From positions 12,616-76,615 of the IMG/VR virus record IMGVR_UViG_3300047368_000324: a stretch of 64,000 nucleotides of DNA; one strand, 5' to 3'. A program made the translations under genes and the position numbers. Each line of letters starts with the position of its first letter. Positions within the stretch are counted from its first letter, which is position 1. Below, in pieces: positions 2,328 to 48,662 of this stretch. The stretch is from a virus. The notes below the pieces were generated by a model. It saw nothing but the letters and a program-made list of their open reading frames with translations. It was not told where the DNA came from and searched no databases.

Positions 2328-2573
2328 ATGACACAATTACAAAGCACTTACAACACGATCCGCAAGCAACGCGACATTGCGGATGAGGTATCTAACTTGA
2401 GTTCGTACATGAGCGGAAACACAAGCGAGCTTGTGCAACACATAGGCTTTCTAGGAGATAAGATAGAAGACCAAGCACAAATGACTAATGGATATTTAGA
2501 TGATATAAGATCATCAATAGATAAGAATACAGAAGCATTACAATTAATAGCTAGAATTTTACAAAATAAATAA
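2328..2573 (+). CDS. hypothetical coiled-coil early protein
   Basis: TTGACA-N17-GATACT promoter ending a few nt before the ATG. Confidence 0.7.
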   Translation: MTQLQSTYNTIRKQRDIADEVSNLSSYMSGNTSELVQHIGFLGDKIEDQAQMTNGYLDDIRSSIDKNTEALQLIARILQNK

Positions 2574-2604
2574 TAAATTTAATAACATTAATAAATATAT
2601 AATT

Positions 2605-2814
2605 ATGAGTATCGCAAAAAACGCAAGAGCATCAGAAGTAATGAGCAAAGTGCAGAATGGACACTACGCTAGAAATGGAAAGTTTGCAAACTTCGGTTCT
2701 ATCCCCGAAGATAGCATATATTACCACACTTGGTTGGCACAGAAAGCCGAGCAGAAGCAAAAAGAAAAAATGGCTCAACGAGCAATCAGATCGGGGGTTC
2801 GTAGTCATGCCTAA
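2605..2814 (+). CDS. hypothetical basic protein
   Basis: ORF in operon. Confidence 0.65.
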   Translation: MSIAKNARASEVMSKVQNGHYARNGKFANFGSIPEDSIYYHTWLAQKAEQKQKEKMAQRAIRSGVRSHA

Positions 2815-3073
2815 GTATGCAGTATTTGTTAAAATGGTTCACCTTGGCAAGTTTGTTATCGAGGCAGAAGACGAAGAGCACGCAAGGCTTATAATGGATT
2901 CGGGAGAAATTGCAGATGATGAATGTGTGGATATTCAGTCGGTAGAGAGCGAGATTACGACTATTGAACTTGCTGATAAACCACCATTTGAGGGTTTTGA
3001 ATCACCTAGAATACCCGAAGACTTTGAGACAATGACCACTGATGGAGAAATAATAGAAGATAATAAAGAATAA
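2807..3073 (+). CDS. hypothetical acidic protein
   Basis: probable start MPKYAVFV at 2807; IEAEDEEHA motif common in small phage proteins. Confidence 0.6.
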   Translation: MPKYAVFVKMVHLGKFVIEAEDEEHARLIMDSGEIADDECVDIQSVESEITTIELADKPPFEGFESPRIPEDFETMTTDGEIIEDNKE

Positions 3074-3174
3074 TATGGAAATAATAGTTGCATCACTTTT
3101 AACTTGTTTTTTAAATAAAACAGTAATATATATTAAACCAAACCAAGAACAAATAATTTATACAGAAAATACTA

Positions 3175-3203
3175 TTGACAAATAATCAAATATATAGTAT
3201 TAT
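3175..3203 (+). promoter_or_regulatory. sigma70 promoter driving a non-coding region
   Basis: TTGACA-N17-TATTAT. Confidence 0.75.
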
Positions 3204-3248
3204 TAATACATAACAATTGAGAAATAAACTCAATCAAATAAAATAAAT

Positions 3249-3260
3249 TGATCTTTAACA
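3249..3260 (+). promoter_or_regulatory. boxA-like antitermination site
   Basis: TGATCTTTAACA, 11/12 match to rrn boxA TGCTCTTTAACA. Confidence 0.55.
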
Positions 3261-3269
3261 TTTTAAATT

Positions 3270-3690
3270 TTGAGCATAGATCTCGCAAGCATTAAGTTGC
3301 TAAAAGCCAATTCTTGTAAGTCTCAATTCACTTTGGAACAATGAGTCGATAGCTGAGTATCGGACATTGACTCGTTCCATTCTATTTGGAAGGGCTTATA
3401 ATCCTTCCTGTGGGTGACTCGAAATAACCTGTCGTGAGCGGGTTAAGGTATGCAGATCCCTGTGGTAGGGACGGTAGAGTCCAATCGGATGAGCCGAATG
3501 ACAAATGCCAAGTCTAGTCTGTAGTTCGAAGTAGGTAATCCATGAACTGATGTTCACGCCGAAAAGTTGAAGGTATACAGTAGTCCTTCCCCACATTTAT
3601 TTTTACAGGCAAATATGCGGAGGTTGTGTGTTGCCTCTAGTGACTATCATCGCCTGTTAGGTAACTCAATAAAAGCCTAACGCTCCAAAA
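3270..3690 (+). ncRNA. putative large structured ncRNA of unknown family
   Basis: GC-elevated, no credible + strand ORF, many hairpins, long-range pair TGTGGG(3409-14)/CCCACA(3590-95), own promoter and terminator. Confidence 0.65.
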
Positions 3691-3720
3691 GCCCCCATCT
3701 TTCGAGGTGGGGGTTTTTTT
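3690..3720 (+). terminator. intrinsic terminator
   Basis: gcccccatct-ttcg-aggtgggggt followed by a T run. Confidence 0.85.
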
Positions 3721-3757
3721 GTTTGACAAGATCGACCACCTAGTCTACTATGGTAGC

Positions 3758-4015
3758 ATGAACACATTAAAAGACATACTATCACATTTCGGATACATTA
3801 ACTCGGCTCAGCTCGCAGAGCTTAACGAACACTTTCCTCACATGAGGGTGGTTATTAAATGGGGCGGATTGCCTCGTGAACGAGTTCCTGTATGGCAAGC
3901 AATTGAAACCATCGAGAGAGTCGAACGAGAGAACCTTGACTATTGCAGAGAGGTATTTCTATCTGCCAAGGATTGCAACAATCTTCGTGAGGCTTTACAT
4001 ATAACCACTAATTAA
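3758..4015 (+). CDS. hypothetical early protein
   Basis: ATG3758 directly after TTGACA-N17-TACTAT; the track start at 3707 lies inside the terminator. Confidence 0.7.
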   Translation: MNTLKDILSHFGYINSAQLAELNEHFPHMRVVIKWGGLPRERVPVWQAIETIERVERENLDYCREVFLSAKDCNNLREALHITTN

Positions 4016-4023
4016 AATATATT

Positions 4024-4269
4024 ATGAAGTATCAAGCAGAACATAGTGCAGTTGAATTAGGTCTATTAGATATAGATGATAGAGTATATGATAATGAACA
4101 TAGAATGGATTATGCTCAAAAACAAGAAATACAAAGTAGAGTTGAATTAATTAGATTATTATTGAAAAGAAATTTACCTCTAAAAGCTAAACAACAATTA
4201 AAATTCTTAGATAGATATATTGATCAATGCTTATATAATGATTATATGGTGAATGACTATTTATCTTGA
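4024..4269 (+). CDS. hypothetical protein
   Basis: ORF; TGA stop overlaps next -35 box. Confidence 0.65.
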   Translation: MKYQAEHSAVELGLLDIDDRVYDNEHRMDYAQKQEIQSRVELIRLLLKRNLPLKAKQQLKFLDRYIDQCLYNDYMVNDYLS

Positions 4270-4300
4270 CCTTTATCTTAATCTTAATTAGTATTATACT

Positions 4301-4876
4301 ATGATAAATCCAGCAGAAGTAACTAACTATAATCGAACTCAATCTGAATTACAGGAGTTTTTATTATTTTGTATTAATGTCGCAGGTAAAAAGTCTGCAG
4401 TCGAGGCTCCAAAACTAGAAGTCTTCCTCGAAAGAGCAAAAGATATCTCTGACACAGATTCTCCATTTGATGCTCTTCGTGCTCTAGAAAAAGCTGGCAG
4501 ACTACAGGAGGTGCTTCATTGGGCGTCAATTAGCCCTTACAAGCAACGCTACAACAGCTACAAGGATGTTCTTGCTCTAGGAGACCTACAAGCAGTTACT
4601 CTCGCCCGCCTGATGCAGGTGCGAGGTGTTGGACTTAAAACCGCACGATTCTTTCTATCTCACAGTCGCGAGGACTTTGATGAGCCCATGCTTGACACAC
4701 ATATTCTTCGCTTCCTTAGGGATCAGGGTTACAGAGACGCCCCAAAAAGTACCCCTCAAAACCAAGGAATCTACAACTATTACTCTAATGTATTTAAAAT
4801 GTTTGCTCGTACACTTGGCAAATCAGTTACTGATTTGGATTTAGAAATCTGGAAGCAATACTCAAAAACAGAATAA
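4301..4876 (+). CDS. HhH-GPD DNA glycosylase, Ogg2-like
   Basis: HhH motif VRGVGLKTARFFL and downstream LDTHILRFL. Confidence 0.7.
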   Translation: MINPAEVTNYNRTQSELQEFLLFCINVAGKKSAVEAPKLEVFLERAKDISDTDSPFDALRALEKAGRLQEVLHWASISPYKQRYNSYKDVLALGDLQAVTLARLMQVRGVGLKTARFFLSHSREDFDEPMLDTHILRFLRDQGYRDAPKSTPQNQGIYNYYSNVFKMFARTLGKSVTDLDLEIWKQYSKTE

Positions 4877-12472: not shown

Positions 12473-12721
12473 TTATTTTTCAAAAATTCTATTAATGTAG
12501 TAGCTGTAATCCTCGCCAAAGCTGAGGTGAGATTGTAACTCACGCACACGCTTGGCAACTTGTCGCCGTACTTCATGCTTATCTTTCGCTTGGTATGTTA
12601 ACACATGATTGGTGCTTTCCATCATTACTTGGGAATTTGTGTTTGTATTAAAGAAGGGGAGCTTGCCACCTCCAATTGAACTGACATGGATATTTGCGGT
12701 GAATGTTTTATTTTTAATCAT
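12473..12721 (-). CDS. hypothetical protein
   Basis: own promoter. Confidence 0.65.
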   Translation of the reverse strand: MIKNKTFTANIHVSSIGGGKLPFFNTNTNSQVMMESTNHVLTYQAKDKHEVRRQVAKRVRELQSHLSFGEDYSYYINRIFEK

Positions 12722-18868: not shown

Positions 18869-21800
18869 ATGGGTTCTAGCGGATATCAGATTAACGAACT
18901 CGAAGGAGGGTATTCTCCAACAATTTCTGAGAAAGGTATTGATATATACGGAGGTCCCAGGGGTTCCTTGGCTGGAACGCTTCCAACATGGATCGCGTGG
19001 TGGGTTGCGAATTACAGATATACTCCTGGACATATCGTATACATGCCTGGCGTTTACAACGCAGATGGCAGCAATGGAACTTACTATGACACCAATGGGA
19101 TGTCCTCAAGGAGGGAAGAGATTGCTTACTCTCAGGACATTCAAGCTGTAAACCTTCAGGAAGGCGGAGACCTTGTTGGTGGAGACATGGGACGCGCCGG
19201 AAGTGAATATTCTACTGGGTCGAATAAAAGGCAATATTTTGAATACGGTGCACATACTTTATGGGTTAAATTATTTGGCGAACCAGATAATAGTTCAACT
19301 AATGATTCTTCGCTGTTAACTGACCAAGACTTTTTTAACGTTACAAAACGAAGACGAAATGGATGGTATTGTTTTTATGAGTTAATGAGTGAAGTTGACC
19401 CTCAGGGCAGTGGCCAGCTTGAAATTGCTTTTCCTCAAGGAAATAGTGTGAACAATAACACTTGGAATAATACAAAAAAAAGATATTCTATCGTTGTTGG
19501 CAATAAAGAGACCTTGAAAGTGGTCTATGGCTCTTGGGGCGAGGATTTATTTAGACAAATTTCATGCGAACCAGGAAGTACAACGGAAATCAAAGTTAAG
19601 CATGACGAGACAGTTTTAAATATGTGCGATAGTTTTATTTTATTCGCCGCTGTAGTTGCTGCGAATACGGGTGGTGATTTAGATTTAATTAATTTTGTCG
19701 TTTGTAAAAGTGTGTTAAGATCTTCTGGCACTATTGAGCAAAATTTAGAAACTTCTCCTGTTGAAGTTGCAATTTTACCTTCTGATAAAGTTTCAATTGG
19801 GGGTAATGTACTCAGAAGTCCTCAAGAGGTTCCGGTTAGAGATATGGTTGACCCCAGTTTTAATGGGAGTTCTGATTTCTTCCAAGACGAAAATGGGCAA
19901 GATGAAACTGCGACAATGGTTTCTGCAGGCTACCCTGGAGTATTAAACCCAGAATCTATTTTTCGTGCAGCGCAAAAATCTAGTGATTTCGATGGTACCA
20001 TAACAAGAATAGCTCAAGGAAACACGGCGGCTAGCGAGGTAATAATGAATGACGCTGACTTAGATGACGACCATTTATATCTAGACAAACTAAAGTTTGG
20101 CAAAGTCCCTGCATATGACCCTAGGTTTGGAGAAGCATCTAGCTCATTAAATAGTTTTATTAGTTCTGTCTATAATTTTTCCCTTCCGATGTCTACTAGC
20201 TCAAGTATTGATTTCTGGCAATCTGGCCAATTTTACAAAGTAGGCAAGGCTGTTAGGTTTTCTCCGAATCAGTCTGAGTATTCAAAATCCGAAGCAAATC
20301 GAACGATTAAAGATGTCATATGGGTAAGTAGAAAAGACCATGCTTCTACATCAAGCAATAAGCCTCCAATGGGGGCGGGGTCAGGTATGCCTTCTGATTT
20401 TGAAAATGAATGCTGGAGATCTTATGGAGTTTTGGCTAATCAACCGAATTCATCATTGTTACAATTGAATGATGTCTACAGGGATTCGGAAGTTTTTGTT
20501 GGAGGTTTAATTATCAATAAGTCTCCAGATGAAATCTTATCAATAAGTGGTGAAATGGTCGACCGCGCTCTACTTGGTTCCGAGCGAAGAATTAGAATGT
20601 CTGAAATGACAGGAGGTTCTAGATTATATGCGAGCTTGACTATATCTCCTGCTAAAAAGTTTAAAGTCAAATATTACAGAAAAAGAAATAGTTGGGGCAG
20701 ACGTTCTAGCGTAACGTTTAGATTTCCGCCCGCAGTAGAAGATGCTGCGGCTGCAGATTTATGGTTATATGCAAATAATTTTAGAAGAGATCACGCGGGT
20801 TCAATAAATTTTGCCGTAACTTTTGTTACGCATACGAGTTTTGTATGGGCTCAAGCGAAGAAACGCAGGAGCTCATTTTTTGGAATCTTATTGGGTGTTG
20901 CATTGGCGGTTGTTGGCATTTTGAATCCAGCGCTGTTTTTGACCGCAGGAATGCAGTGCGCAGCATATGGCTTCGGGGGAGGTTTAGCGCTGGGAGCCTT
21001 AGGTGGAGCTGTTGGGTTGGGCGTGGGCACCGCATTAGGCGCTAGTGCAGAAGCTGTTTATGCCAACTTGGGAAAAGGGGTTGGCCGAAAAAAAGCTTTC
21101 ACAAGAAGTTCTTTCTCTCAAGTTATTAGTAAGATTGCAAATGATGCTCCGTCCGCAAATTATGTATTAGATAGAGGTTCCGCTCCAGAAAATGGCATGG
21201 TTATTGGACGTAATAGCTCAGATGTGTCAAGTATGTATGATACTAATCTAGGAGGTAGTAATGCAAATGTACAATCTGAAAATGATATAATTCGTTTTAA
21301 TTTTGGTAACCTTTATCCATATTTATATGAGAGTAAATATGGTAATACAATTCATGTATCTGGTCAGTATCAATTTTTAATACAAGACTTAAATTCTGCT
21401 AGCGCAATTAAGATTGCTTTTAATTATGAGGAGATAAGTCGTAGAGGTGGTAGGGGCGCCGTTGATAGCTTTGGCAATACATTTTCGGGGTATCCAGCTG
21501 GGACACCCGAAGGTAGTCATGCAGGCGCAAATTCAACGCTATGGAGTCAATATCGAAATGCCGCGAATGAGATTGTAAATGGTAACGCGAGTAGTACTGG
21601 TAATTTAAAATTAATATCTACTAAAAACTATTTTAATTATTTATTAATTGGACCCGAAAACATAAGAGATGATTTGGACCCCTTAAAAGCTTTGGTTATG
21701 TGGTCAATGGATTTGAGTGACGCTCAATTTAGCGCACTAGTCGGCATGATTCAAACAGGCTTTCGAGATTTAACATTTAACTCCAGCGGTTCCTTTTCTG

Positions 21801-24800
21801 ATCAAGATGGGCTTAGTGATTATAAGGAAATTTATACATCTAATCCACCTATAGCTGCTGCAGAAAATGTAGCAGCCACAGGTTACCAACTAGAAATATC
21901 AAACAATACCATAACACACGTTAAGGAGGATAAAACAAACGGTCGGAGGGTAAAAATCCTTAAGAGCGTTGGCGAATCCCAGGGAATGAGCAGAGAAGAT
22001 ATGGAAGTCTTGGCTAAAGGGCTTGCTCCTGGAGAATTTTTGCTTGGAAAAGATTTAGAGAATTCTACGCCACAATATATAAACTTTTTAAAATCTTCAG
22101 CTCTTTCTGGAGCGAAAGAATGGACTTCAATAAATAACGGAGTTAAAATAAATGGCGGAGACGTCATACAAAATGGACAAGATTTTTACTTTGTTAATGC
22201 AACCTTTATCAAGAATAATCAAAACCTATCTGACGTTGCGACTTTAGTTCCAAGATCTTCTTCTCAAATATATACCGCCGATTCATTCTCTCCGAGTTTA
22301 ACACTGGTTAAACAATGGCAAAAAATGCTTGAGTCTCCATATTATACCGAGCAGACAAATGACCGTTCTGCCTCTTATTACCTTGCGGGTAGGAAGTTAG
22401 ACTTTTCTTTCGTTGTAAAAGAAAGTGCAGACCCTTCTTTATTTAATCTATTTTTCTTTGGATTCTCGGATTATATTCCAAATTTTGCCTCAGCAAATAT
22501 GGATACATATGAAATTGATAGCGTTGCCCAGCTACCGATGATTAAAGATTCAAAGGATTTGACTGGAGATTATATTGGTAATGGATCAACTCAATTTGTT
22601 CGTGACGATGCAACTTATACTACTAAACATGTTTTTAGATTAAAAGACAATATTCCTCGAACAGCAGAGCTTCCTGTTGGCGCAATCCCTGGTTTTAAAT
22701 CAGAGCTTTCTTGGGAGTACTTAGGTTCGCCTTCTGATCTTACTCCATCAGTCATATCAGAATGGACGCTACCTGTCTTGAAGGAGACTGTGTCAGAATT
22801 TACTCCTGGGCAGGATGTTATAGCCACTAATAAGTTGCGCCCATTAGGTTTTTGGAAATCAGAGGCGGGCACCAAACTTTCTGGTTCGAGTATTAATGGA
22901 ATAATCGAACAGCAAGAGTTTTCGCTCACGGTCAACTTCCCATGGATTAAAATGACCAGCGCGCCTAGCGATTCGACTGCTCAATATGTTACAACTCAAA
23001 ACAAGGATGGATCTACCGTATATTTACTTTCTCCTTATAGCAAGGTGTCTGGGCAGACTTCTGGAATTAATTTAGCAGCATTTATACCCTCGAATATAAA
23101 TGACACATGGAAGGGGTTAATGAACAATACTATTCTAAGTAGTTCTCAGACCAATTATATACTTGACGCATATCTTACGAATAAACTTGACATATTAAGA
23201 ACTTTTGAAGTTCAAGGTTTTGAGGTTTCTCATATTCAAATTGTTATTTCACCTATTACTGACTTAATCGATAAAATTGAAGTTTGGGATCCTACCGCAA
23301 ATTACTCAGAAGGAGATGTTGTTCTCGTGCATCATACGAATTATAATTACCTTTCAGAAGAAACAGGTAAAATGCAAGCGGCTCAAAGCGAATTTGGGAA
23401 ATTATGGTTATATGCAAGAGCCACGCGAACTATTACAAATGGAGAAAAACCTTTTCATAACGATAATCCAGAGCCTAGTGCTGCTCCAGGCAGCATGGGG
23501 GAATTGGGCGAAGTAATATTACCTGTCGATACAAAATATTGGGAATGCTGTACTGCAAGAGAAGGTTCTACTGTAGACAGTATAACAAGCGGATTGGGCG
23601 CAAAAAAATTAGCAAAATCTTGTTACGGAACCGATTTAGACGTCAAGACCTATACTGTTTCGATGGGAGAAGCGGATACGTTTACGCAGCCAGGCAGAAG
23701 CCAAAAAACTACCGAAATTTACATACCCCAACAAAGAGGAATTTACAATAAAAATGTTTCTATGGATTTTAGTTCCCCTAAAAATTTAATTTTTACAACA
23801 ACAATATCTCCTGAAGCTAAAATTGTTGGACGATTACCTTCAAGCGCCGTGGCGTATACAAATGAAGGAGGAACCTGGCCTGGAACCCTTAACCAGAAAG
23901 ATACGCAATATCTTGAGCCTAGTGATTATGCAAATTTATACGAAGAGAATCCTTTGATTAATTTATTTTTAAGAAGAAGCGTTAATGCTGGGGCAAGATG
24001 GAGTAATTGGATTGATGGAATCATGACGAGCGGGCAGGATGCTGAAATATATAAAAAGATTACATACTCTCAAGGGGATGAATATCAAAAATTTGAGACA
24101 ATGCCTACTGTTGAGCTCGCTGTATCTAAGGATTCTGGAAGTACTTTTGAAGAGTTCGTTGCTAAAAGAGAATTTGACGAAAACTATCCAGTTTTTCATA
24201 AGGGTTTTGATATACCAGTCGGAATTAAGGCAACGATATCAAATGCGCTAGGTATAAATGACAGCCCTTCTAATTCAGTTGGATCAAATTTATATGGCTA
24301 TATAAGCTGTTTATATAACCCAGGAACAGAAGTAGTAGGTGGAGCGTCAGGTTTAATAAATTTTATTGGAGAAGGGACTGGTTCAGAAAACGTTAAGTTA
24401 AAGAATTGGAGTGGGACAGATATAGGAAATTCTACTGCGGCTGATTTTTATGAAACTATCGCCACAGATGATGAAAGTGGGCTTTTGCAATACGGACCCC
24501 AAACTATATCAGACGAACTAACTTTACATTCACTAAATGGAATCAATCGAACGAATTATACACCAGCATTTAAAATATTTCTTCCTGAGACATCAAGTTC
24601 AAGGAATCCTCTTGATCTGTGTGTTCAGAAATGCGTATTAATACTTGGAACAAGAGACTCAAATGACGGCTTGACACACAACCGTACAAAAATTAAAAAC
24701 TTCGTATCTGGAAGTGGTATAGATTTCCATTTTGATAACTGGTTTGCTATCCCCGCTGGACAAAATTCATATGTAGATCAATCCGGTAACACTTGGCCAG

Positions 24801-27800
24801 CCACTGACCAAATTGACAAATTTGGAGAAGAAGACAATGAGTTTATAAAAATAAAATCTAATTTAAACACCCTAACCGAGGCATTGTACGCTTTATCTGA
24901 TGTCGTTGGAGCCTCTACAACCCATAACAATAATTTCATAGATCTAAGTACGACGCAAACCCATTATCACGGTTCGGCAAATCCTTTTACTAATTTTGAT
25001 GAAGTGGGAGTGGGTTACTTGACAAACATATTAAGGGGCGCAGGGGAATTTATTGGCGCAAAAGCCAATGCAAGTTTTAACAATAGCGGAACTTACATCG
25101 GGGGAGTAGGTTTAACTCAAACTACGGTAACTTCTACAGAATTTATGTCAATCTCTCAACCCGCGTTTGAAGATAAGGGTGTGCATGGAAAACCTGAAGG
25201 TTCATATAACATGTATATGTATAATGATTCAAATTATACCTTCCAAATTGATACAGCTATACCCGCTTTATTATATAAGAAATATACTAATATCAATGAC
25301 TCAAATGACGTGGTTAATAAAAACTATTACGATTTACTTCTTGATGATAACTGTCCTGGAGGAGGCGACTCCAAGGCAGATTTTACGGAAGATTACGTTT
25401 TTAACGCCGAAATCAAACTTTTGAAGAATTATTTAATGGTGGGCGAGATATCGCATTATGATTCTAATTTTCAAGAAGCTGATGGATATAAAGGTAGAGT
25501 TTTTCTAACCAGGTCAGAGCTAGGGGATCCTGTTAATAACGATACAGTAACAATTAAAATTGATGATGGAATCAATTGTCCTCATGGAGCTAATTTAAAA
25601 ACATTGAATTTAAGTTATAAGTTAATTGACCCTCCTAACTTGAGTAGTATAGCCAATAATATAAACGGAAAACTATATTATTATGATAATGATACTCATG
25701 TTTATAGCTTTGGCGTAAGTTTTCCTGTTGCAAGTGAATTTGGAGGAAGGCTTGTTATTCAAGATGGTATTGGTCCTGATTTAACTTTTGAATCTCAATC
25801 TGGACCTCCTGCTATAAATTATACTAGACCAGATAGCCAAGCAACCTCAGTCACGTTTACTATCGATGATGGGGTTCCTCACGGGTTTGGCGTTGCGAGA
25901 ACGGGCGCCGCATATCACAATTTAATTTATCCAGGCGGATTTAATCCTGTACAAAGCTTTCCAGTTGTAACAATTGCGGATGTTGCTATCGAAGGATCAC
26001 TTGGTGTTAGCGGAGATGGTTATATTGCCAATAAAGTTGTCGGGGTTTTTCCTGACATGACCATTGTTCAAATAAACAAGCAGTATATTTACAATAATTC
26101 TGATCACGAATACAAAGGCCTTTATATTAGTATGCCCGCGTTTAATATCGCAGACACTACAGATAGAGGCCTCTTTGTTTCAAGGTCTTCAATTTCAAAC
26201 CGAGGAATATCGCGTACGCTTGAGCTCGGGTATCCTGTATTTGGTTTTGGACCAATGCATGCCAAAGCAGTGCTTCATGAAAAAATGTTTCCACCTGATG
26301 ATAGCGGTACCGCAACCCTCTCGATTCAAGATGGAACCCTGTTAGGCTCTACAAAATCAGAAGGAACTTTTGAAATACCATATCAAAGATTAGATAAAGC
26401 TTTTGGAACAATTACGGGAATTAGAACTTCTTCAACATTCAAATTATGGTCCAGCTCTCCATTGATTAACTCTGGAAATATAGATTTAGAAGGGCTCGTA
26501 ACTTGCTGGGAGCATGCAAAGGTTACAATAGAAACTTCAACTAGTGAAGCTATTGAAATTCAAGACGATTTGATTCAAGAATCTGCAGGTTTTACAAATT
26601 TCCGCTGGAACTTCACGGACTACGATTTAAGCCAGAGTATTAATTCTCAAGCTGATCTTATTGATGGTCTTTATGTAACTATTTTAGATAGAAGCCGAGG
26701 CTCTACCGAAGGGGTAGACACCTGGGAAACTTTTAATTATACTGTTGCCGAAGCGATTGATTTGTTTTTTGAGAGTGGAGAGTACCAATATAACTACAAT
26801 ACAGCAAAAAAAGATCTACCAACTGACCCTTTAACGAGAAAGCGTTTTTCCGTACAAATTAAAGCAAAACAAGGTTCACCCGAAAAACTTGTAGTTGATG
26901 ATCAACTTCTAAAAGACGGAGGTTGGACACATAGCGCAAACATATCCCTTGGTTCTATTGGCGACTCTGCCGAGGCTCCAATTTATACAAACCTCACTCA
27001 GTCTTTTAAATACCCTGAGGAGTCTAATAACGTCGTAGTCAATAGAATGGGCGGACAATTTAACATTGCTGACGGAGACAGAAGGTACACTTCAGTAAAC
27101 TCAGCATTAATGTATTCTAGCTATGCAACCCTAAGGTCTATGATTATTAATTATAATCCTGATTCTACTGGCAAAATATATTATACAAAATTTATAAATG
27201 ATAGCCCGAATAGAGTTCCTTATTCTGGTTTTAGGTCAAAAATAAAATATGATCCGTCTAGACCAGGAATGAACGAGCCTAATATTTGGATGGATCGCTC
27301 AAGCTTTGTCAAAAGCGGCATCGATGTAGACGAATACACAACATCCGCTTCTAGTAATGGGGCGATTGATCTATGCCCAAATTCAATAACAACATTTATA
27401 TGGGGCAGTAAGGCAAAATGGCTAACTCATGAGGATGAAAACCCTGAGACGGATTCCTCTCCAAGCGAATTTGATGGAGATAATTTTGTGGTTTGGAATT
27501 CCGAATCATATTACGGCTCGCAAGATTGGGAGGTTATTGGCCGAAGTAATAAAGGAGGAAGCGATAAGAGTTACTTTCACCTTCCTAGTTGGATTCCTAC
27601 ATTTACAGCTAATCAAGACTGGTTTCAAACAAACAGAATTCCTGGTTGGAGCTTAACAACCCCCCATTTGTCTTTTATAAATAATTATGAAAATTTTCAA
27701 AGTTACGGAGCAAGTGGTGCGACTAATTTTTGTAATATAATAAAAAATGGAACTGCTGTCTGGGGAGGATTAAGTCTATCTGACGCTTGGATTAAGAGAG

Positions 27801-30409
27801 AGGATGTTTCTGGTTCAGAAAATTGGTTTGGTTATGATAGGGAGGGTTACATAGGGCTTCAAACTGGCCAGGCTTCGAGAATGAATAAATTTATTCATGG
27901 TCTCGCCCCAGGAGTAACCTATAGGCTTTATATATCTGCCGCCTGGAGACCCAACTATGGCCCTTCTGGCGTAAGGGTTTATGTTTGCGAGCCTGACCAA
28001 TCTCAATCAGATGCAGGAGATTTAACCAATGAATTAATTGGTTATGGAGAATTTACTTGTAACACCGCAAGGTCTATAGATTATAATGCACAAAATCATC
28101 ATGGAGGAAGAGGCGTTCAAACTAATTTTACGCTAGAAGAACCTTATTCCGCTAATCTTAGAAGCGGGGCATCTAATGTTCCAAATGGAGAACGAGAAGA
28201 TTACGGAAGCATCAAGAATCATGTTGGTAGTGATGGTTTTCGTTTATTCTATGTTGAGTTTACTCCGTCTCTAGGCTCTGGGGTTATAGAGGTGAGGCTT
28301 GAGAACGCTTTTGTTAGCGGTCTTTATGCTGGTGTTGGTAGGTCAGATTTGGGTAATTATGATTATACATGGTTCGCTCCAACTCAAGGCGATATGTTTG
28401 ATGTCAGTCAACCCTGGTTTGAGTCAGAGAGAAAAAACTGGACAGAATACTCGGGAGTTTGGGCAAGCAATGGAATAGCTGGTAGCAGTGGAGATCAGAC
28501 GGTTTTTATTGGAGATGTTTTTATTAAAAGCATTAGGCCTTTATATGTTGAAACCGTGAAAGTAAAGGGAGACTGTAAGCAGGGCGGCTTCGAGCTTGTA
28601 TTAAAAAACGGCGACACGCAAAATTCAACTCTAGAAAGGGCATACCTAAGGAGTCCCACTTCTCATGCGGACATATTCAGGAAAATGTCTGCAACAAATT
28701 ATGCTGGAGATAGTGTTGACCTGTTTTCAACAGAAGAAGGTACTCTTGGTTGGTTTGAGGTTGATGAAGATTACGAAATAGATATTATTCGACAAAATCC
28801 TTACTTATTGACGTGGGATCCTTTTGCGGTTGATGCAGAAAATTATTCTGCTCGTGGATCGAATCAAGGCTATATTGCTCAAAAATTCGTTCCTGACGTA
28901 TTTGGTAATGCTGAACATGGCGCTTATGATTTGGACATGGTTGTAAATGATGAAGCTGTTGAGGCTTTATATGAGATCATGCTAGGAAGAGCGGCAGACG
29001 AAGCTGGCAAGACTGCGAAAATTAATAATCAAATGACTGTGAATGAAGTCATAGAGGAGATGCTGGCTAGCTCAGAGTACGCAGATTATAAAGCAATTAG
29101 AAACCTGCCTGACGACCCTAGACCAGGCATGTCAAAAGAAAGAGCGTTTTATTCAAATTTGATGTCAGGATTTTACCTTGGGCATACGTGTTTCTATCAT
29201 GGAAATATATGGCAGCTTAAACAAGAATACAGAACTTACGGCAATGACGGAACAAAGCCCTTGAGACCTGGATACGAGAATTATTTAGGAAATGCTCAAT
29301 GGAACTGGACTACAGAATTTGATGACATTGCACCAAGCTCTACAAAATGGGAAAACATTAGTAATAAAACCTCTAGCCAAATTATTAGCGACGCTGCAAG
29401 TGGAACAGGAGCCTATCATAATAGTTCATTAAGCGAGATAAAGGTTTGGAATAATGATGTTTTTGTAGAGAATCTAGTTGCCGGTTTACGAAGAATATCT
29501 TCGGTCGGTATGATGTGGAGCGCGCATTATTTAGATTCTTTTTTTAGAAGACCTTTTATACAAGAAAATTTAGAAACCCAAGAATTTGATTACTTGGAGG
29601 ACTTAGGCGCAATTAATAATAAGGAAAATACCCTATTGCTTGGAGAAAGCAGAACGCTTTCTGATGCAAGCTTTCGCTTCGGAGACTCATTGTCCATTAG
29701 TAATAGTAATAATTATTGGACTGAACCATCCAAACCAACTAATGGAACTACTAATTGGAAGGCGGTTTATCCACGAATTATGTCATCGATTGAGCGGGAG
29801 ATTGCGCCTCCCCAAATGGGTTGGTATGGAGCGAGCACGCAAGCAATTTCAGGCGCTAATGCGGGAGATGCAGAATTTGCTTTGTGGGCAGGGGGTTTTG
29901 GGGGTATAGATGGAAGGAAGTTAGCTTGGTCTGTAGGTCCAGAATACCCTGTTGCCAAGGTTTATGAATATCAGGGCGCAAGTAATCCAAGCGGATGGTC
30001 TACGTTGCATGATAATCAAGAGATATTGCTCGATCCTTTAGCGTCGAATTTTGATCCCGTTAGTCCAGCTTTAAATAATTCTCAATTTAAAAGAATGATC
30101 GGCAACTCAAAGTTTTCTAAAGCTTACGCTTTTGGGGTTGGCAACTCTGTCGAGCTTAGCTCTAGGGGCGCTTCCAGAGACTCAAGGATTGAACTACCAA
30201 TTTACGCTGATACAAGTTCTGAGTTTATTGGAGATAATTACTACGGAGGATCAAATCCAATACCTCATAGAGGTCTCGCTGGCAGAGTCCTTAATGCGGG
30301 ATTTTTGAATGATTATGCCACGTATAATAGCAGCACTGACCAATATAAATATTCTTCAGCATCGCTTAGTAAGGCTTTTGAAGGAAGGATTAGAATAAAT
30401 TTTATATAA
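18869..30409 (+). CDS. giant (3846 aa) virion tail or adhesion protein
   Basis: G/S/N/T-rich; CBM5/12-like W...Y..GD.V motifs; Gly-rich hydrophobic segment; DUF4214-like motif. Confidence 0.65.
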   Translation: MGSSGYQINELEGGYSPTISEKGIDIYGGPRGSLAGTLPTWIAWWVANYRYTPGHIVYMPGVYNADGSNGTYYDTNGMSSRREEIAYSQDIQAVNLQEGGDLVGGDMGRAGSEYSTGSNKRQYFEYGAHTLWVKLFGEPDNSSTNDSSLLTDQDFFNVTKRRRNGWYCFYELMSEVDPQGSGQLEIAFPQGNSVNNNTWNNTKKRYSIVVGNKETLKVVYGSWGEDLFRQISCEPGSTTEIKVKHDETVLNMCDSFILFAAVVAANTGGDLDLINFVVCKSVLRSSGTIEQNLETSPVEVAILPSDKVSIGGNVLRSPQEVPVRDMVDPSFNGSSDFFQDENGQDETATMVSAGYPGVLNPESIFRAAQKSSDFDGTITRIAQGNTAASEVIMNDADLDDDHLYLDKLKFGKVPAYDPRFGEASSSLNSFISSVYNFSLPMSTSSSIDFWQSGQFYKVGKAVRFSPNQSEYSKSEANRTIKDVIWVSRKDHASTSSNKPPMGAGSGMPSDFENECWRSYGVLANQPNSSLLQLNDVYRDSEVFVGGLIINKSPDEILSISGEMVDRALLGSERRIRMSEMTGGSRLYASLTISPAKKFKVKYYRKRNSWGRRSSVTFRFPPAVEDAAAADLWLYANNFRRDHAGSINFAVTFVTHTSFVWAQAKKRRSSFFGILLGVALAVVGILNPALFLTAGMQCAAYGFGGGLALGALGGAVGLGVGTALGASAEAVYANLGKGVGRKKAFTRSSFSQVISKIANDAPSANYVLDRGSAPENGMVIGRNSSDVSSMYDTNLGGSNANVQSENDIIRFNFGNLYPYLYESKYGNTIHVSGQYQFLIQDLNSASAIKIAFNYEEISRRGGRGAVDSFGNTFSGYPAGTPEGSHAGANSTLWSQYRNAANEIVNGNASSTGNLKLISTKNYFNYLLIGPENIRDDLDPLKALVMWSMDLSDAQFSALVGMIQTGFRDLTFNSSGSFSDQDGLSDYKEIYTSNPPIAAAENVAATGYQLEISNNTITHVKEDKTNGRRVKILKSVGESQGMSREDMEVLAKGLAPGEFLLGKDLENSTPQYINFLKSSALSGAKEWTSINNGVKINGGDVIQNGQDFYFVNATFIKNNQNLSDVATLVPRSSSQIYTADSFSPSLTLVKQWQKMLESPYYTEQTNDRSASYYLAGRKLDFSFVVKESADPSLFNLFFFGFSDYIPNFASANMDTYEIDSVAQLPMIKDSKDLTGDYIGNGSTQFVRDDATYTTKHVFRLKDNIPRTAELPVGAIPGFKSELSWEYLGSPSDLTPSVISEWTLPVLKETVSEFTPGQDVIATNKLRPLGFWKSEAGTKLSGSSINGIIEQQEFSLTVNFPWIKMTSAPSDSTAQYVTTQNKDGSTVYLLSPYSKVSGQTSGINLAAFIPSNINDTWKGLMNNTILSSSQTNYILDAYLTNKLDILRTFEVQGFEVSHIQIVISPITDLIDKIEVWDPTANYSEGDVVLVHHTNYNYLSEETGKMQAAQSEFGKLWLYARATRTITNGEKPFHNDNPEPSAAPGSMGELGEVILPVDTKYWECCTAREGSTVDSITSGLGAKKLAKSCYGTDLDVKTYTVSMGEADTFTQPGRSQKTTEIYIPQQRGIYNKNVSMDFSSPKNLIFTTTISPEAKIVGRLPSSAVAYTNEGGTWPGTLNQKDTQYLEPSDYANLYEENPLINLFLRRSVNAGARWSNWIDGIMTSGQDAEIYKKITYSQGDEYQKFETMPTVELAVSKDSGSTFEEFVAKREFDENYPVFHKGFDIPVGIKATISNALGINDSPSNSVGSNLYGYISCLYNPGTEVVGGASGLINFIGEGTGSENVKLKNWSGTDIGNSTAADFYETIATDDESGLLQYGPQTISDELTLHSLNGINRTNYTPAFKIFLPETSSSRNPLDLCVQKCVLILGTRDSNDGLTHNRTKIKNFVSGSGIDFHFDNWFAIPAGQNSYVDQSGNTWPATDQIDKFGEEDNEFIKIKSNLNTLTEALYALSDVVGASTTHNNNFIDLSTTQTHYHGSANPFTNFDEVGVGYLTNILRGAGEFIGAKANASFNNSGTYIGGVGLTQTTVTSTEFMSISQPAFEDKGVHGKPEGSYNMYMYNDSNYTFQIDTAIPALLYKKYTNINDSNDVVNKNYYDLLLDDNCPGGGDSKADFTEDYVFNAEIKLLKNYLMVGEISHYDSNFQEADGYKGRVFLTRSELGDPVNNDTVTIKIDDGINCPHGANLKTLNLSYKLIDPPNLSSIANNINGKLYYYDNDTHVYSFGVSFPVASEFGGRLVIQDGIGPDLTFESQSGPPAINYTRPDSQATSVTFTIDDGVPHGFGVARTGAAYHNLIYPGGFNPVQSFPVVTIADVAIEGSLGVSGDGYIANKVVGVFPDMTIVQINKQYIYNNSDHEYKGLYISMPAFNIADTTDRGLFVSRSSISNRGISRTLELGYPVFGFGPMHAKAVLHEKMFPPDDSGTATLSIQDGTLLGSTKSEGTFEIPYQRLDKAFGTITGIRTSSTFKLWSSSPLINSGNIDLEGLVTCWEHAKVTIETSTSEAIEIQDDLIQESAGFTNFRWNFTDYDLSQSINSQADLIDGLYVTILDRSRGSTEGVDTWETFNYTVAEAIDLFFESGEYQYNYNTAKKDLPTDPLTRKRFSVQIKAKQGSPEKLVVDDQLLKDGGWTHSANISLGSIGDSAEAPIYTNLTQSFKYPEESNNVVVNRMGGQFNIADGDRRYTSVNSALMYSSYATLRSMIINYNPDSTGKIYYTKFINDSPNRVPYSGFRSKIKYDPSRPGMNEPNIWMDRSSFVKSGIDVDEYTTSASSNGAIDLCPNSITTFIWGSKAKWLTHEDENPETDSSPSEFDGDNFVVWNSESYYGSQDWEVIGRSNKGGSDKSYFHLPSWIPTFTANQDWFQTNRIPGWSLTTPHLSFINNYENFQSYGASGATNFCNIIKNGTAVWGGLSLSDAWIKREDVSGSENWFGYDREGYIGLQTGQASRMNKFIHGLAPGVTYRLYISAAWRPNYGPSGVRVYVCEPDQSQSDAGDLTNELIGYGEFTCNTARSIDYNAQNHHGGRGVQTNFTLEEPYSANLRSGASNVPNGEREDYGSIKNHVGSDGFRLFYVEFTPSLGSGVIEVRLENAFVSGLYAGVGRSDLGNYDYTWFAPTQGDMFDVSQPWFESERKNWTEYSGVWASNGIAGSSGDQTVFIGDVFIKSIRPLYVETVKVKGDCKQGGFELVLKNGDTQNSTLERAYLRSPTSHADIFRKMSATNYAGDSVDLFSTEEGTLGWFEVDEDYEIDIIRQNPYLLTWDPFAVDAENYSARGSNQGYIAQKFVPDVFGNAEHGAYDLDMVVNDEAVEALYEIMLGRAADEAGKTAKINNQMTVNEVIEEMLASSEYADYKAIRNLPDDPRPGMSKERAFYSNLMSGFYLGHTCFYHGNIWQLKQEYRTYGNDGTKPLRPGYENYLGNAQWNWTTEFDDIAPSSTKWENISNKTSSQIISDAASGTGAYHNSSLSEIKVWNNDVFVENLVAGLRRISSVGMMWSAHYLDSFFRRPFIQENLETQEFDYLEDLGAINNKENTLLLGESRTLSDASFRFGDSLSISNSNNYWTEPSKPTNGTTNWKAVYPRIMSSIEREIAPPQMGWYGASTQAISGANAGDAEFALWAGGFGGIDGRKLAWSVGPEYPVAKVYEYQGASNPSGWSTLHDNQEILLDPLASNFDPVSPALNNSQFKRMIGNSKFSKAYAFGVGNSVELSSRGASRDSRIELPIYADTSSEFIGDNYYGGSNPIPHRGLAGRVLNAGFLNDYATYNSSTDQYKYSSASLSKAFEGRIRINFI

Positions 30410-45655: not shown

Positions 45656-46192
45656 ATGGAAAACGAACAATCTAGACAAATTTATTTCAAAGAAGAAAAC
45701 GATGCGGATTCTTATGATGTACGCATGTATAGATCCAATCTATTCCAAGCTGCTAAGAATGCACAAAAAATCTTTGATTATCTTGGGGACGGAGTAGAGC
45801 TAGAGGAATGGATGAAACAGCATATCGTTTCCGCTTCAGAGGAGCTTAATCAAGTTAGGCAAGCCCTAGAGTATAATAAAGAATATCCAGAAAAAGCAGA
45901 ATCTCTTCCCGAAGAAGAAGAAGTTGAGAACAATTATCTATCGAACGAGGATAAAAGATATCCTATGCCGCAAGAATCTGAAAGCAGCGAACAATTCATG
46001 ACAAGATGCATATATGATGCTAACATGAAAAAAAGATACCCTGAGCAGGGAGATCGCTTTATGGCTTGCATGCTAATATTAAACGGACCTAACGAAAACG
46101 TTACAGATAATCCTGGAGAAAAATTTGAAGACCCAATGGACCCTGCAAAAAAAGATATTCCGCTAGATCCTCAAAAACCTATACTGCCTTAA
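45656..46192 (+). CDS. hypothetical protein
   Basis: GTGTA motif 9 nt upstream. Confidence 0.65.
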   Translation: MENEQSRQIYFKEENDADSYDVRMYRSNLFQAAKNAQKIFDYLGDGVELEEWMKQHIVSASEELNQVRQALEYNKEYPEKAESLPEEEEVENNYLSNEDKRYPMPQESESSEQFMTRCIYDANMKKRYPEQGDRFMACMLILNGPNENVTDNPGEKFEDPMDPAKKDIPLDPQKPILP

Positions 46193-48662
46193 TTGTATTA
46201 AAAACTTTTCCATTTTTGATGGAAAACAGTATTCTGGAGTTTTCTTTCAACTCTTTAGAAATTAGTAATGTCGCAAGTGGGTCTTCGATTTGTTTTTGAA
46301 TAATTCTAGAAATAGGCCTGGCTCCAAATTTAGAATCCTCTAATTGCCTAACGATATCTTCTTTGATTGTTTTAGAAATAGATAATTTTATATTTTTAAC
46401 TTTGAGCTTTTCTTTAATTGGTTTCAATTCTAAGTCTATTATTTTCAATAAAGATTCTTTGTCAAAGGGCTTGAACATTACAACTTCTGTTAATCTATTA
46501 ACAAATTCTGGCCTTAGTGCTTGACTGGCTTTTTCAATTAATTTTTCTGTATATTTTTCGTTTTCATTTTCTGCTGGAGCAAATCCAACGCCGGGTTTTT
46601 TATGCGCAAGTTCACTACCTATATTGCCAGTGATTATAATTATTGCGTTCCTAAAGTCTCCAACTCGACCTAATCCATCTGTTAACCTTCCTTCTTCCAG
46701 TATTTGCAACATTGATTGAATAACATCAGGGTGAGCTTTTTCTATTTCGTCAAATAAAACTACGCTATGTGGGTTTTTCATGATTTTATCGATTAAAACC
46801 GAGCCCTCTTCGTAGCCTACATATCCTGGAGATGCGCCAGCAAGTCTAGTGCTTGCAGTCTTCTCTGAATACTCACTCATATCCAAGTGAATTATTTCCG
46901 ATTTCTCTCCTAATAGGCATTTTGAAATTTGTTTAGCGGTGTGGGTTTTACCTAATCCGCTCTGGCCTAATAATAAGAAACTGCCTATTGGTTTGCACTC
47001 ATTTCTTAATCCAGACTTAGATCTAAGTATTGCTTGGCATATAGAATCTACAGCTTCTTTTTGACCTATAATTTTAGCCTCAAGTTTTTTATTTAAATTT
47101 AGGAACTTTTCGGACTCTGTCATTGAGAGCTCGCTCATGGGGATGGAGGTGATTTGGCTTACTGTTTTTAGAATATCTTCTTCTTTAATTTTTATCTTTG
47201 CCTTGAATTTTTTCATAGCCCACTGATTTAATTTTTGTGAATACTTTTCTAATAAAGAATCTTGGCTTTTAATTATTTCAATTTTATCTAATTCATTAAT
47301 GCATTTTTCTTCTTCCTTCATTAATCTTTCTAGCTCAGCCTCCATGTCTTTGATAGACTTAGGCCTTACAAATGCTTTAATTTTAATTTTTGCCCCTGTT
47401 TGATCTAAGATGTCTATGGCTTTGTCGGGGAATTGTCTACTAGGTAGGTATCGATTTGCCAAGTTTACGATTAAGTCTAAGCATTCCTTGGGATAAGATA
47501 CATGATGAAACGTTTCGTATTTTGAGACAATGCCGTTAAGGATTTCTCTTGTTTCTACCGCAGACGGAGGCATGCATTTAATTGGCTGAAACCTTCTGTC
47601 TAGCGCTGCATCCTTAAGTATGCTTTTCTTATATTCATTATGAGTTGTCGCTCCAATGCATCTAATATCACCCCTGGCAAGCATGGGCTTTAAAATATTC
47701 GCAGCGTCCATAGTTCCTTCTGCACTACCTGCGCCAACCAGAGTGTGAATTTCATCTATAAACAATATAAATCTTTCTGCTTCCCTAACCTCTTCCAAAA
47801 GACCTTTGAGTCTTTCCTCGAACTGACCCCTGTATTTTGTCCCAGCGATCATTCCTGCTAGGTCTACGGATAAAATATTCTTATCTAGTAAATGTTCTGG
47901 TGCATTACCTTTTGCGATAATTTGAGAAAGGCCTTCGACTAGGGCGGTTTTTCCTACTCCAGCTTCCCCTAGTAGTACGGGATTGTTCTTAGTTCTTCTA
48001 CATAAGGTTTCGCACATTTCAAGCATTTCGTCGTCCCTGCCTATAATTTTATCGAACTTACCCTGCGATGCCAAAAGGGTATAGTTGGTAGTATATTTTT
48101 CAATTAAAGATGGGCTTTGATTTTTTTTACTTTTTTGCGCTGGCGGACTCAATGGTTGCGCTGGGAAATTAGGGTAAATATCTTGAGGATGAACAACATA
48201 TGGAGTTTCATTACTAATTGATAATTTAAAATAATTTTTAATTTCTTCTATAATTATGTCTTCAGGTATATTAATATCTTTAAAATACTGATTAATAGGG
48301 GAGTTTTCATATTTAAGCATGGCAAGTAATAAATGCTCGATGCCTACATAATCATGCCCAAAGTTGTGACTGATAAGGGTTGCTATCTCAAGTATTTGTT
48401 TGAATTTTTTATCAAAGGTTATGTCTTTAATATCTTTTGCTTTTGTCCTTTTCCATTTTCTGGCCACAGATTCTATTAAAGAAGTTGGGTCCAGACCTAC
48501 AGATATTAAAACTTCATGAACGATTCCTGCTTTTAGGTTTAGGATTCCTAAAAATAAATGCTCTAAGGAAACTTTGCTATGTCCCAGCTCTTTGCAGCAT
48601 TTTTTTGCGATTTCTATTGCTCGCTGTGCGCGAGGCGTAAAGTTTGGCTTATGTTCCATCAT
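46179..48662 (-). CDS. clpC: ClpA/ClpC AAA+ ATPase
   Basis: Clp-N repeats, GEAGVGKT, GQSGLGKT, PGYVGYEEG and ClpP-binding VGF loop. Confidence 0.92.
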   Translation of the reverse strand: MMEHKPNFTPRAQRAIEIAKKCCKELGHSKVSLEHLFLGILNLKAGIVHEVLISVGLDPTSLIESVARKWKRTKAKDIKDITFDKKFKQILEIATLISHNFGHDYVGIEHLLLAMLKYENSPINQYFKDINIPEDIIIEEIKNYFKLSISNETPYVVHPQDIYPNFPAQPLSPPAQKSKKNQSPSLIEKYTTNYTLLASQGKFDKIIGRDDEMLEMCETLCRRTKNNPVLLGEAGVGKTALVEGLSQIIAKGNAPEHLLDKNILSVDLAGMIAGTKYRGQFEERLKGLLEEVREAERFILFIDEIHTLVGAGSAEGTMDAANILKPMLARGDIRCIGATTHNEYKKSILKDAALDRRFQPIKCMPPSAVETREILNGIVSKYETFHHVSYPKECLDLIVNLANRYLPSRQFPDKAIDILDQTGAKIKIKAFVRPKSIKDMEAELERLMKEEEKCINELDKIEIIKSQDSLLEKYSQKLNQWAMKKFKAKIKIKEEDILKTVSQITSIPMSELSMTESEKFLNLNKKLEAKIIGQKEAVDSICQAILRSKSGLRNECKPIGSFLLLGQSGLGKTHTAKQISKCLLGEKSEIIHLDMSEYSEKTASTRLAGASPGYVGYEEGSVLIDKIMKNPHSVVLFDEIEKAHPDVIQSMLQILEEGRLTDGLGRVGDFRNAIIIITGNIGSELAHKKPGVGFAPAENENEKYTEKLIEKASQALRPEFVNRLTEVVMFKPFDKESLLKIIDLELKPIKEKLKVKNIKLSISKTIKEDIVRQLEDSKFGARPISRIIQKQIEDPLATLLISKELKENSRILFSIKNGKVFNTIKAV

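Follow-up and report, generated by a model that had tools for sequence, protein, structure and literature searches.

A manA RNA of an uncultured marine phage lies in a putative free-standing unit behind an rRNA-operon-like boxA leader

The window analyzed here, a stretch of 64,000 nucleotides (positions 12,616 to 76,615 of the IMG/VR virus record IMGVR_UViG_3300047368_000324), contains at 3175-3720 a locus that the original prediction, made from the sequence alone, had described as a probable novel structured noncoding RNA (ncRNA) of about 500 nt with an rRNA-operon (rrn)-type boxA leader. We identify the core of this locus, 3388-3599, as a phage copy of a known RNA, the manA RNA (Rfam RF01745), an assignment that we regard as virtually certain. 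The core is preceded by a promoter, a small hairpin and a boxA element and is followed by a terminator, and this layout is conserved in relatives. What emerges is a known RNA family in an rRNA-operon-like expression setting that is undescribed in the literature searchable to us. Judging from its arrangement, the unit is probably a free-standing gene with its own promoter, boxA leader and terminator, and not part of a 5' untranslated region (5' UTR). On balance we favor a combined reading in which a free-standing manA unit with an rRNA-operon-like boxA leader would be produced with the assistance of Nus factors, yielding a discrete RNA that would act in trans.

The structured core is a manA RNA

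An Rfam scan of the whole window returned a single match above threshold, manA RNA, with 73.6 bits against a gathering score of 55.2 (E = 1e-18). The alignment is not truncated and spans model positions 1-192 of 192, so the gathering score is exceeded over the full model. The match covers 3388-3599 end to end, and the novelty proposed for this RNA, which the original prediction had itself made dependent on an Rfam scan, falls with it. The stems that had been proposed within 3388-3595 hold up as helices of the Rfam manA fold: GGAAGG/CCTTCC is its P1, TGTGGG/CCCACA its closing helix, and AACCTG/CGGGTT, TCCCT/AGGGA, TGAAC/GTTCA and GAAGG/CCTTC are its internal hairpins. In an alignment of the core from 30 relatives, 13 of the 34 predicted pairs have two-sided changes that retain pairing, which argues that the RNA is real and under selection. 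Among the helices that covary in homologues is P1, with GGAAGG/CCTTCC, GGAGAT/ATCTCC and GGATGT/ACATCC; the closing helix is invariant in the relatives and hence uninformative on covariation. A scan of the window for tRNA and transfer-messenger RNA (tmRNA) found none, as had been anticipated.

The whole unit of about 510 nt (3210 to 3722) folds more stably than shuffled sequences (z = -2.8), but the proposed length of about 500 nt overstates the conserved part: the conserved structured RNA within this transcription unit is the 212-nt manA core and the rest consists of variable modules. The core is delimited in this way because the 5' hairpin (3335-3378) and the 3' hairpins (3607-3681) are each common to few relatives. 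The corresponding stems of the original prediction exist but are lineage-specific: GGAAC..GTTCC is shared with the loci L013, L062 and L065, and AGGCAA/TTGCCT and GTTAGG/CCTAAC only with L002 and L111.

Several other candidates at the locus were rejected. Matches on the 3' flank to rnk_pseudo (29 bits vs 55), Yfr10 (23.7 vs 43) and RNAI (18.9 vs 47) are sub-threshold and are terminator-hairpin look-alikes. A 66-aa open reading frame (ORF) antisense to the core (3396-3596, minus strand) is not conserved and was dismissed as a base-composition artefact; among relatives the open frame shifts (8 frame combinations), and an ATG start is present in 6 of 34. Antisense targeting of early messages by the manA tail was likewise set aside, as complementarity within the window is at shuffle level. 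Complementary 10- and 11-mers of the tail, the leader and the 5' insert are not in excess over shuffles elsewhere in the window, with 1 observed vs 1.9 in shuffles for the tail, 12 vs 11.5 for the leader and 5 vs 3.7 for the 5' insert at k = 11.

The layout of the unit is conserved in relatives

The features of the unit are collected in Table 1. The protein-anchored set of relatives comprises 16 IMG/VR loci at 63-87% identity to the 85-aa protein encoded downstream (3758-4015). manA lies directly upstream in all 16 (61-89 bits) and is also present in 12 further loci. A scan of IMG/VR with a pattern for the boxA block gave 86 matches, about 46 of them with a promoter in front. In every one of these promoter-bearing contigs that is long enough to show it, manA follows the leader; the remaining matches are without a promoter and resemble coding or chance matches. 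Removal of duplicates left 35 distinct units. The order of promoter, hairpin, boxA and manA is found in 16/16 protein-anchored relatives and in 35 distinct units overall. The structured ncRNA with its own promoter, boxA-type leader and terminator that had been proposed is upheld.

Table 1. Coordinates of the manA unit, its flanking elements and other features of the window
Feature	Position	Strand	Details
sigma-70-type promoter	3175-3203	+	-35 TTGACA 3175-3180, 17-nt spacer, -10 TATTAT 3198-3203; 11/12 consensus matches
Leader hairpin	3216-3234	+	ATTGAG-AAATAAA-CTCAAT; boxB-like in position; in the minimum-free-energy fold
boxA element GATCTTTAACA	3250-3260	+	within TGATCTTTAACAT 3249-3261; extended conserved block AATTGATCTTTAACATTTT 3246-3264
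Lineage-specific boxA-manA spacer	3265-3384	+	module 3265-3334; hairpin GGAAC..GAGTC/GACTC-GTTCC 3335-3378; no Rfam match
manA RNA (RF01745)	3388-3599	+	P1 hairpin 3388-3408; closing helix TGTGGG 3409-3414 / CCCACA 3590-3595; internal hairpins, junctions; Rfam
U-rich tract TTTATTTTT	3596-3604	+	directly after the closing helix
Lineage-specific 3' module	3607-3681	+	hairpins AGGCAA/TTGCCT 3607-3636 and GTTAGG/CCTAAC 3656-3681
Intrinsic terminator	3687-3718	+	14-bp stem, 4-nt loop, T-run
Next-gene promoter	3723-3760	+	-35 TTGACA 3723-3728, -10 TACTAT 3746-3751, ATG 3758 (6 nt after -10)
3846-aa ORF	18869-30409	+	
827-aa protein	46179-48662	-	PHROG 4871 'ATP-dependent protease', E = 6e-230
DnaE-like polymerase	48674-51229	-	<=34% identity to any phage record

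Conserved and free blocks alternate in an alignment of 14 relatives. The conserved blocks are the -35/-10, a hairpin of 5-6 bp whose loop is A-rich, a linker likewise rich in A, AAT(T/C)GATCTTT(A/T)ACATTT, manA and the U-rich tract. The stretch between boxA and manA is unrelated between lineages, and the DNA upstream of the -35 is not conserved. On the 3' side stand, in a few lineages, further unrelated hairpins and then a terminator hairpin that keeps its pairing in differing sequence, a T-run and, at a distance of no more than about 10 bases, an invariant TTGACA with its -10 and an ATG 6-7 nt after that.

The proposed promoter is the best-scoring one in 2500-4500, and in the 14 aligned relatives and the wider set its -35 is invariant and its -10 conserved; a transcript would start near 3210. 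The leader hairpin is present in 30 of 34 distinct leaders, with a double change to TTAAG/CTTAA in one lineage, and is absent from the L030, L050 and L056 types, in which boxA comes directly after the start site. In L003 (977-1070) the leader hairpin segment is duplicated before boxA (TTGAGAAACAAAAAC..., then CTGAGAAACAAACTCAAT).

Between boxA and manA the relatives carry 16-224 nt, comprising at least five unrelated inserts; the module at 3265-3334 is common to L117. At the site of the 3' module, other relatives are either without an insert or carry a different one of about 150 nt (L105, L129), and in L111 the second stem is TCAAAGG/CCTTTGG, a compensatory change. The unit acts like a scaffold to which RNA modules can be added on the 5' as well as the 3' side. 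Larger modules are found in L105, which carries both a 224-nt 5' insert and the roughly 150-nt 3' module that it has in common with L129 (L105:251-460 and 679-890); at the loci with the L105/L129 modules, manA was the only Rfam family matched.

The U-rich tract, which may be a first termination or 3'-end site, lies 3' of the closing helix in 30/30 aligned relatives. It is a clean T6-T8 run in L030, L049 and L056, the units without a separate terminator, and in 28 manA loci of T4-like cyanophages. Closing helix and U-tract together would constitute a signal for termination or for the 3' end that is built into the RNA throughout the manA family and is backed in most of the clade by a canonical terminator, and the manA fold itself may be an intrinsic terminator across the family. 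In the T4-like cyanophage loci (L018-L047, 28 loci, e.g. L023:1809-1961:-), a sigma-70-like promoter adjoins P1, some having a T4-late-like TATAAATA at the promoter, and the T6-T8 run begins 2-3 nt after the closing helix and is followed by a Shine-Dalgarno sequence and a gene (gene 32, transaldolase).

The strong terminator of the original prediction has counterparts in about 30 of the 35 units, where a hairpin of -18 to -27 kcal/mol with a T-run stands 53-211 nt after manA; its stem sequence differs among relatives while the pairing is kept by covariation. Downstream of the T-run, 28 of the 35 units have a new -35 at a distance of 7-29 nt, which is 7-12 nt except in two of them; the promoter that it opens is conserved as TTGACA-17-(C/T)A(T/C)(A/T)(C/A)T. 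This promoter marks the boundary of the RNA gene without belonging to it. The ATG follows the -10 by 6-7 nt in 27 of these 28 units and by 4 nt in the remaining one. The next gene (85 aa) is without a Shine-Dalgarno sequence, and its mRNA is probably leaderless.

The leader carries a natural rrn boxA variant

The boxA element that had been proposed at 3249 is present, and its conservation was counted in the protein-anchored set, leaving out loci fetched by the boxA pattern. It occurs there as GATCTTT(A/T)A(C/A)A in 16/16 loci, once in each and always in the leader, with nine copies of GATCTTTAACA, six of GATCTTTTACA and one of GATCTTTAAAA; the leader RNA forms are GAUCUUUAACA and GAUCUUUUACA. 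Its distance from the promoter is fixed, whereas that from manA varies between 16 and 224 nt, which argues for a signal on the nascent transcript and not for a part of the fold. The element persists in the three lineages without the leader hairpin. In the window it starts about 40 nt after the predicted transcript start and 15 nt after the hairpin at 3216-3234, a layout seen in 30 of 34 leaders, and it would accordingly be promoter-proximal, hairpin-preceded and on an untranslated transcript, as an rrn-type boxA is.

We compared the element with rRNA operons. Of 13 positions, it shares 11 with the E. coli rrnH boxA TGCTCTTTAACAA. We then searched a single genome from each prokaryotic species for GATCTTTAACA at 96-156 nt upstream of the 16S primer site AGAGTTTGATC, a distance calibrated on the E. 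coli rrnH leader, in which boxA lies 139 nt before that site. The exact 11-mer was found at this position in at least 120 loci against about 4 expected by chance, by our own estimate of ~3x10^5 16S sites x 61 positions / 4^11. GATCTTTAACA thus serves as a boxA sequence in real rrn leaders. The matches listed are mostly from beta- and gamma-proteobacteria (Thiobacillus, Dechloromonas, Chromatiaceae, Salinisphaera, Reinekea, Arenicellales and others), and most of the listed beta- and gamma-proteobacterial ones have a boxC-like GTGTGGGTG (GTGTGGG) 12-20 nt further on, as in E. coli rrnH. Letter for letter, the phage element is by its sequence a natural rrn boxA variant that stands in rrn-like hairpin-boxA order before an untranslated structured RNA. 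We give even chances that it loads Nus factors. Five AT-rich rrn-leader matches (L142, L144, L163, L173 and L201) have nearly identical leaders; L144, L163 and L201 are genomes of 0.8-1.0 Mb that are labelled either 'Pseudomonadales' or with candidate-phyla names, one of which is probably wrong.

The rrn operons of B. subtilis are reported to open with a small hairpin and, after it, the boxA AUGAUCUUUGAAA, which also has an A at position 2 and binds B. subtilis NusB (2026 mBio, PMC13753749). The rrn antitermination complex blocks Rho on untranslated RNA and holds the 5' transcript near the exit channel (PMC13753749).

The 5' strand of the manA closing helix (window 3407-3417; cf. L133:255-275) reads CUGUGGGUGAC in this clade, against a cyanophage consensus of GGGAGUGAC, and is similar to UGUGUGGGUGCUC, the boxC found after boxA in rrn leaders. 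The likeness may be a coincidence or may reflect a boxC built into the fold.

Gene, leader switch or antitermination signal

Several observations weigh against a free-standing gene made with Nus assistance, and we consider them together with the alternatives to which they lend support. Some concern the position of manA, which always precedes a same-strand gene, of the same family in 16/16 protein-anchored relatives. In L030, L049 and L056 only a T-run separates manA from the gene, which follows directly, so that the arrangement resembles a 5' leader. Such features, with the U-rich tract after the closing helix in every relative and the clean T6-T8 run and immediate gene in these three units and in the 28 cyanophage loci, would suit a cis-acting riboswitch or attenuator, in which a ligand-dependent closing helix beside the U-tract or terminator would gate read-through into the downstream gene (ATG 3758). 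In Rfam and in Weinberg et al. 2010, manA is classed as cis-regulatory, 'probably' a riboswitch. We nevertheless hold this to be unlikely for the unit in question. The downstream gene has its own conserved consensus promoter, and its ATG lies at the predicted transcript start, 6-7 nt after the -10 and without a Shine-Dalgarno sequence, so that an RNA reading through from manA would bury the start codon. The terminator, variable in sequence, stands 53-211 nt away from the fold with unrelated inserts in between, which argues that no conserved antiterminator couples the two; a conserved alternative pairing between sensor and terminator, as in a riboswitch, was accordingly not found, although the U-tract could still serve as a built-in platform. 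In the literature searchable, no ligand of manA is reported, and some manA copies in the 2010 alignment lie among tRNA genes with an annotated terminator of their own, which also fits a stable-RNA gene (PMC2864571). The Cis-reg label of the family is based on a position in the 5' UTR of the downstream gene, and in the window manA does not occupy such a position; this matter concerns the annotation and not the fold, and leaves membership in the RNA family unaffected.

Other observations concern boxA. Within the window, 3 sites match the E. coli boxA at <=2 mismatches, against 3.95 expected, so that the match is not above chance there; the case for the element draws on its conservation and on bacterial rrn leaders. 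With its A at position 2, GATCTTTAACA departs from the gamma-proteobacterial consensus GYTCTTTAANA (PMC5725501). Six of the 16 relatives collected without the boxA pattern have T at position 8 and one has A at position 10. Among 401 genomes sampled from one class, 3 carry the motif at the rrn position, where it is a minority variant, and the invariance of boxA in L048-L132 is partly by construction, as these loci were fetched with the boxA pattern. It is therefore conceivable, if in our judgment doubtful, that manA is a free-standing gene whose boxA block does not load Nus factors but is a processing site, a protein-binding site or a promoter-proximal element with a convergent or accidental rrn likeness. 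A processing site there would be single-stranded and A/U-rich, as RNase E prefers. The whole 50-nt leader is conserved, including the A-rich linker, not the 11-mer alone. Against this stand the exact identity with the rrn-leader boxA in at least 120 loci at the canonical 16S distance, the order of hairpin and boxA found in both E. coli and B. subtilis rrn leaders, the retention of boxA in lineages that lost the hairpin, and its place ahead of an untranslated structured RNA, which is the sole context in which a boxA is expected. Alternatively, the leader might work in the manner of a nut site: polymerase that starts at 3175-3203 would be modified at the hairpin and boxA, either by Nus factors, which a phage N-like protein might assist, or by the manA fold acting like the HK022 put or EAR RNA, and would read through 3687-3718 into the long same-strand array of early genes. 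In favor of this, the hairpin and boxA form the 5' end of a unit oriented towards some 6 kb of small genes on its own strand, a strong terminator intervenes, synteny is conserved, and the 2010 survey that described manA also includes RNAs that modify the polymerase (epsC/EAR). Against it, 28 of the 35 units have a consensus promoter right behind the terminator, which would make read-through unneeded; hairpin and boxA follow one another as in rrn leaders and not as in lambda nut, the hairpin is dispensable in three lineages, and no N-like protein was identified among the neighbors, which are without a Pfam or PHROG family. We rate such antitermination as very improbable. A new, uncatalogued RNA class of about 500 nt has next to no chance of being correct: the flanks 3204-3387 and 3600-3686 have no above-threshold Rfam match, but the core is a full-length manA and the flanks are not conserved across relatives.

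Contigs in RNA libraries

Six RNA-library runs share words with the stretch, and four of them, picked by such words, were compared by means of assembled contigs. One contig of 272 nt is identical to 3300-3571, further contigs overlap 3215-3603, and contigs of relatives span leader to core. One run also covers the flanking genes; in 3 of the 4 runs the flanks 2400-3200 and 3610-4600 are uncovered, which is not evidence of differential expression. The contigs, which we count as weak evidence, place the sequence in RNA libraries of four studies. Being assembled, they do not bear on transcript ends, strand or expression level, and DNA carry-over is possible, a further point against the reading that we favor.

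Genomic setting of the unit

The IMG/VR virus record from which the window is taken measures 76.6 kb and has a CheckV completeness of about 58%; the G+C content of the window is about 36%. Among its genes are those for a terminase, a replicative helicase and a DnaE-type polymerase. Small genes form long same-strand runs, and about 6 kb of them lie ahead of the RNA unit in its direction. The flagged stretch itself sits between two small genes without a known family; comparison of the neighboring proteins with PHROGs and Pfam yielded no informative family, and the 85-aa downstream protein matched no family whatever. The source is an uncultured marine phage that is not T4-like, given its DnaE-type polymerase and 3846-aa ORF. 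A blastn search of 3100-3800 against 50,697 phage records gave no match, and a protein search with the polymerase retrieved relatives at <=34% identity only and no close cultured phage. Its lineage is uncultured and includes related contigs that are 125-214 kb long. The contig L030 of a relative, which carries a boxA-manA unit, also encodes a tmRNA (L030:10941-11374, minus strand; 102.6 bits) whose basic tag, GAKKHVRALGFKNRIAAKRFGYKSRKLALAA, is unusually long.

Discussion

The free-standing, boxA-led reading of the manA unit suggests the following course of events. Host RNA polymerase would transcribe the unit early in infection from a start at about 3210, and the nascent boxA would load host NusB-S10, NusA, NusG and SuhB, as on rrn operons. 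The Nus complex could then shield the untranslated transcript from Rho, and a 5' end held at the polymerase might aid formation of the long-range closing helix between 3409-3414 and 3590-3595. Transcription would end at the U-tract (3596-3604) or at the terminator (3719) and release a discrete manA RNA, presumably stable and abundant, that would act in trans.

This RNA may act as a homo-oligomeric assembly. In a cryo-EM preprint (July 2026, bioRxiv 10.64898/2026.07.01.735769), several manA RNAs are described as forming decamers and a 60-subunit cage in vitro, and such self-assembly is the sole experimental hint at how the RNA acts. One could extend our reading to propose that manA RNAs are no riboswitches but Nus-aided stable-RNA genes of phages, transcribed like small rRNA operons, whose products form RNA-only cages in infected cells, the lineage-specific 5' and 3' hairpin modules then decorating or loading the cage. 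We think this extension quite unlikely to be right; the in vitro cages were obtained at high RNA concentration and with other family members only, which also counts against the trans-acting RNA that we favor. If true, cages in infected cells would be the first RNA shell found in nature to serve a biological role.

That the core belongs to a known Rfam family is in itself an ordinary finding, and the layout does not reveal the cellular role of manA RNA. The setting has wider interest. manA has been an orphan 'riboswitch candidate' since 2010, and the 10- to 60-subunit cages formed in vitro in 2026 came without biology attached. The locus and about 35 related units argue for a free-standing, deliberately over-produced RNA and against a gene-leader switch. 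In the literature searchable, no paper links manA with boxA or Nus factors, and the unit adds to the few cases of boxA outside rRNA operons and lambdoid phages. It is a natural expression cassette with defined predicted ends and offers a testable hypothesis of Nus-dependent synthesis and folding.

The manA motif was described in 2010 as marine, from cyanophages and Photobacterium, and located upstream of varied genes (Weinberg et al. 2010, PMC2864571). The copy described here has the same helices, the blocks GUGAC-GAA and UAAGGU, the GUGGU loop, the GGUAUACAGUA loop and the U-rich 3' flank, and likewise comes from a marine phage. It differs in that the family is catalogued as a 5'-UTR element of T4-like cyanophages and Photobacterium, whereas this phage is not T4-like and its manA stands behind a promoter and a hairpin-boxA leader of its own, carries lineage-specific appended hairpins and a terminator, and precedes a gene with a separate promoter. 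The 5' closing strand is also distinct (GUGGGUGAC here against a family consensus of GGGAGUGAC).

With lambdoid nut, HK022 put and EAR (epsC) the unit shares a promoter-proximal RNA signal, made up of boxA and a hairpin, that precedes a terminator and phage early genes on the same strand. In lambda nut, however, boxA precedes boxB, whereas here the hairpin precedes boxA, and no N-like protein was found here; the downstream genes have their own promoter, and manA has no likeness in sequence or fold to put or EAR. ROOL, GOLLD and OLE, as cited in the 2026 preprint, are also structured ncRNAs, often phage-borne, that form homo-oligomers in vitro. manA is far shorter (~200 nt) and unrelated to them in sequence and fold.

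The rrn leader (boxB-boxA-boxC; NusB-S10, NusA, NusG, SuhB, S4) is a further system for comparison. The product here is a 212-nt phage RNA and not rRNA, and Nus binding is predicted. The spacing between hairpin and boxA is 15 nt as against 4 in E. coli rrnH, and there is no separate boxC, only the boxC-like GUGGGUG in the manA closing strand. In common with rrn leaders, the unit has a strong promoter, a small hairpin and a boxA 11-mer identical to that of at least 120 natural rrn leaders, followed by an untranslated structured RNA that is closed by a long-range helix and ends in an intrinsic terminator.

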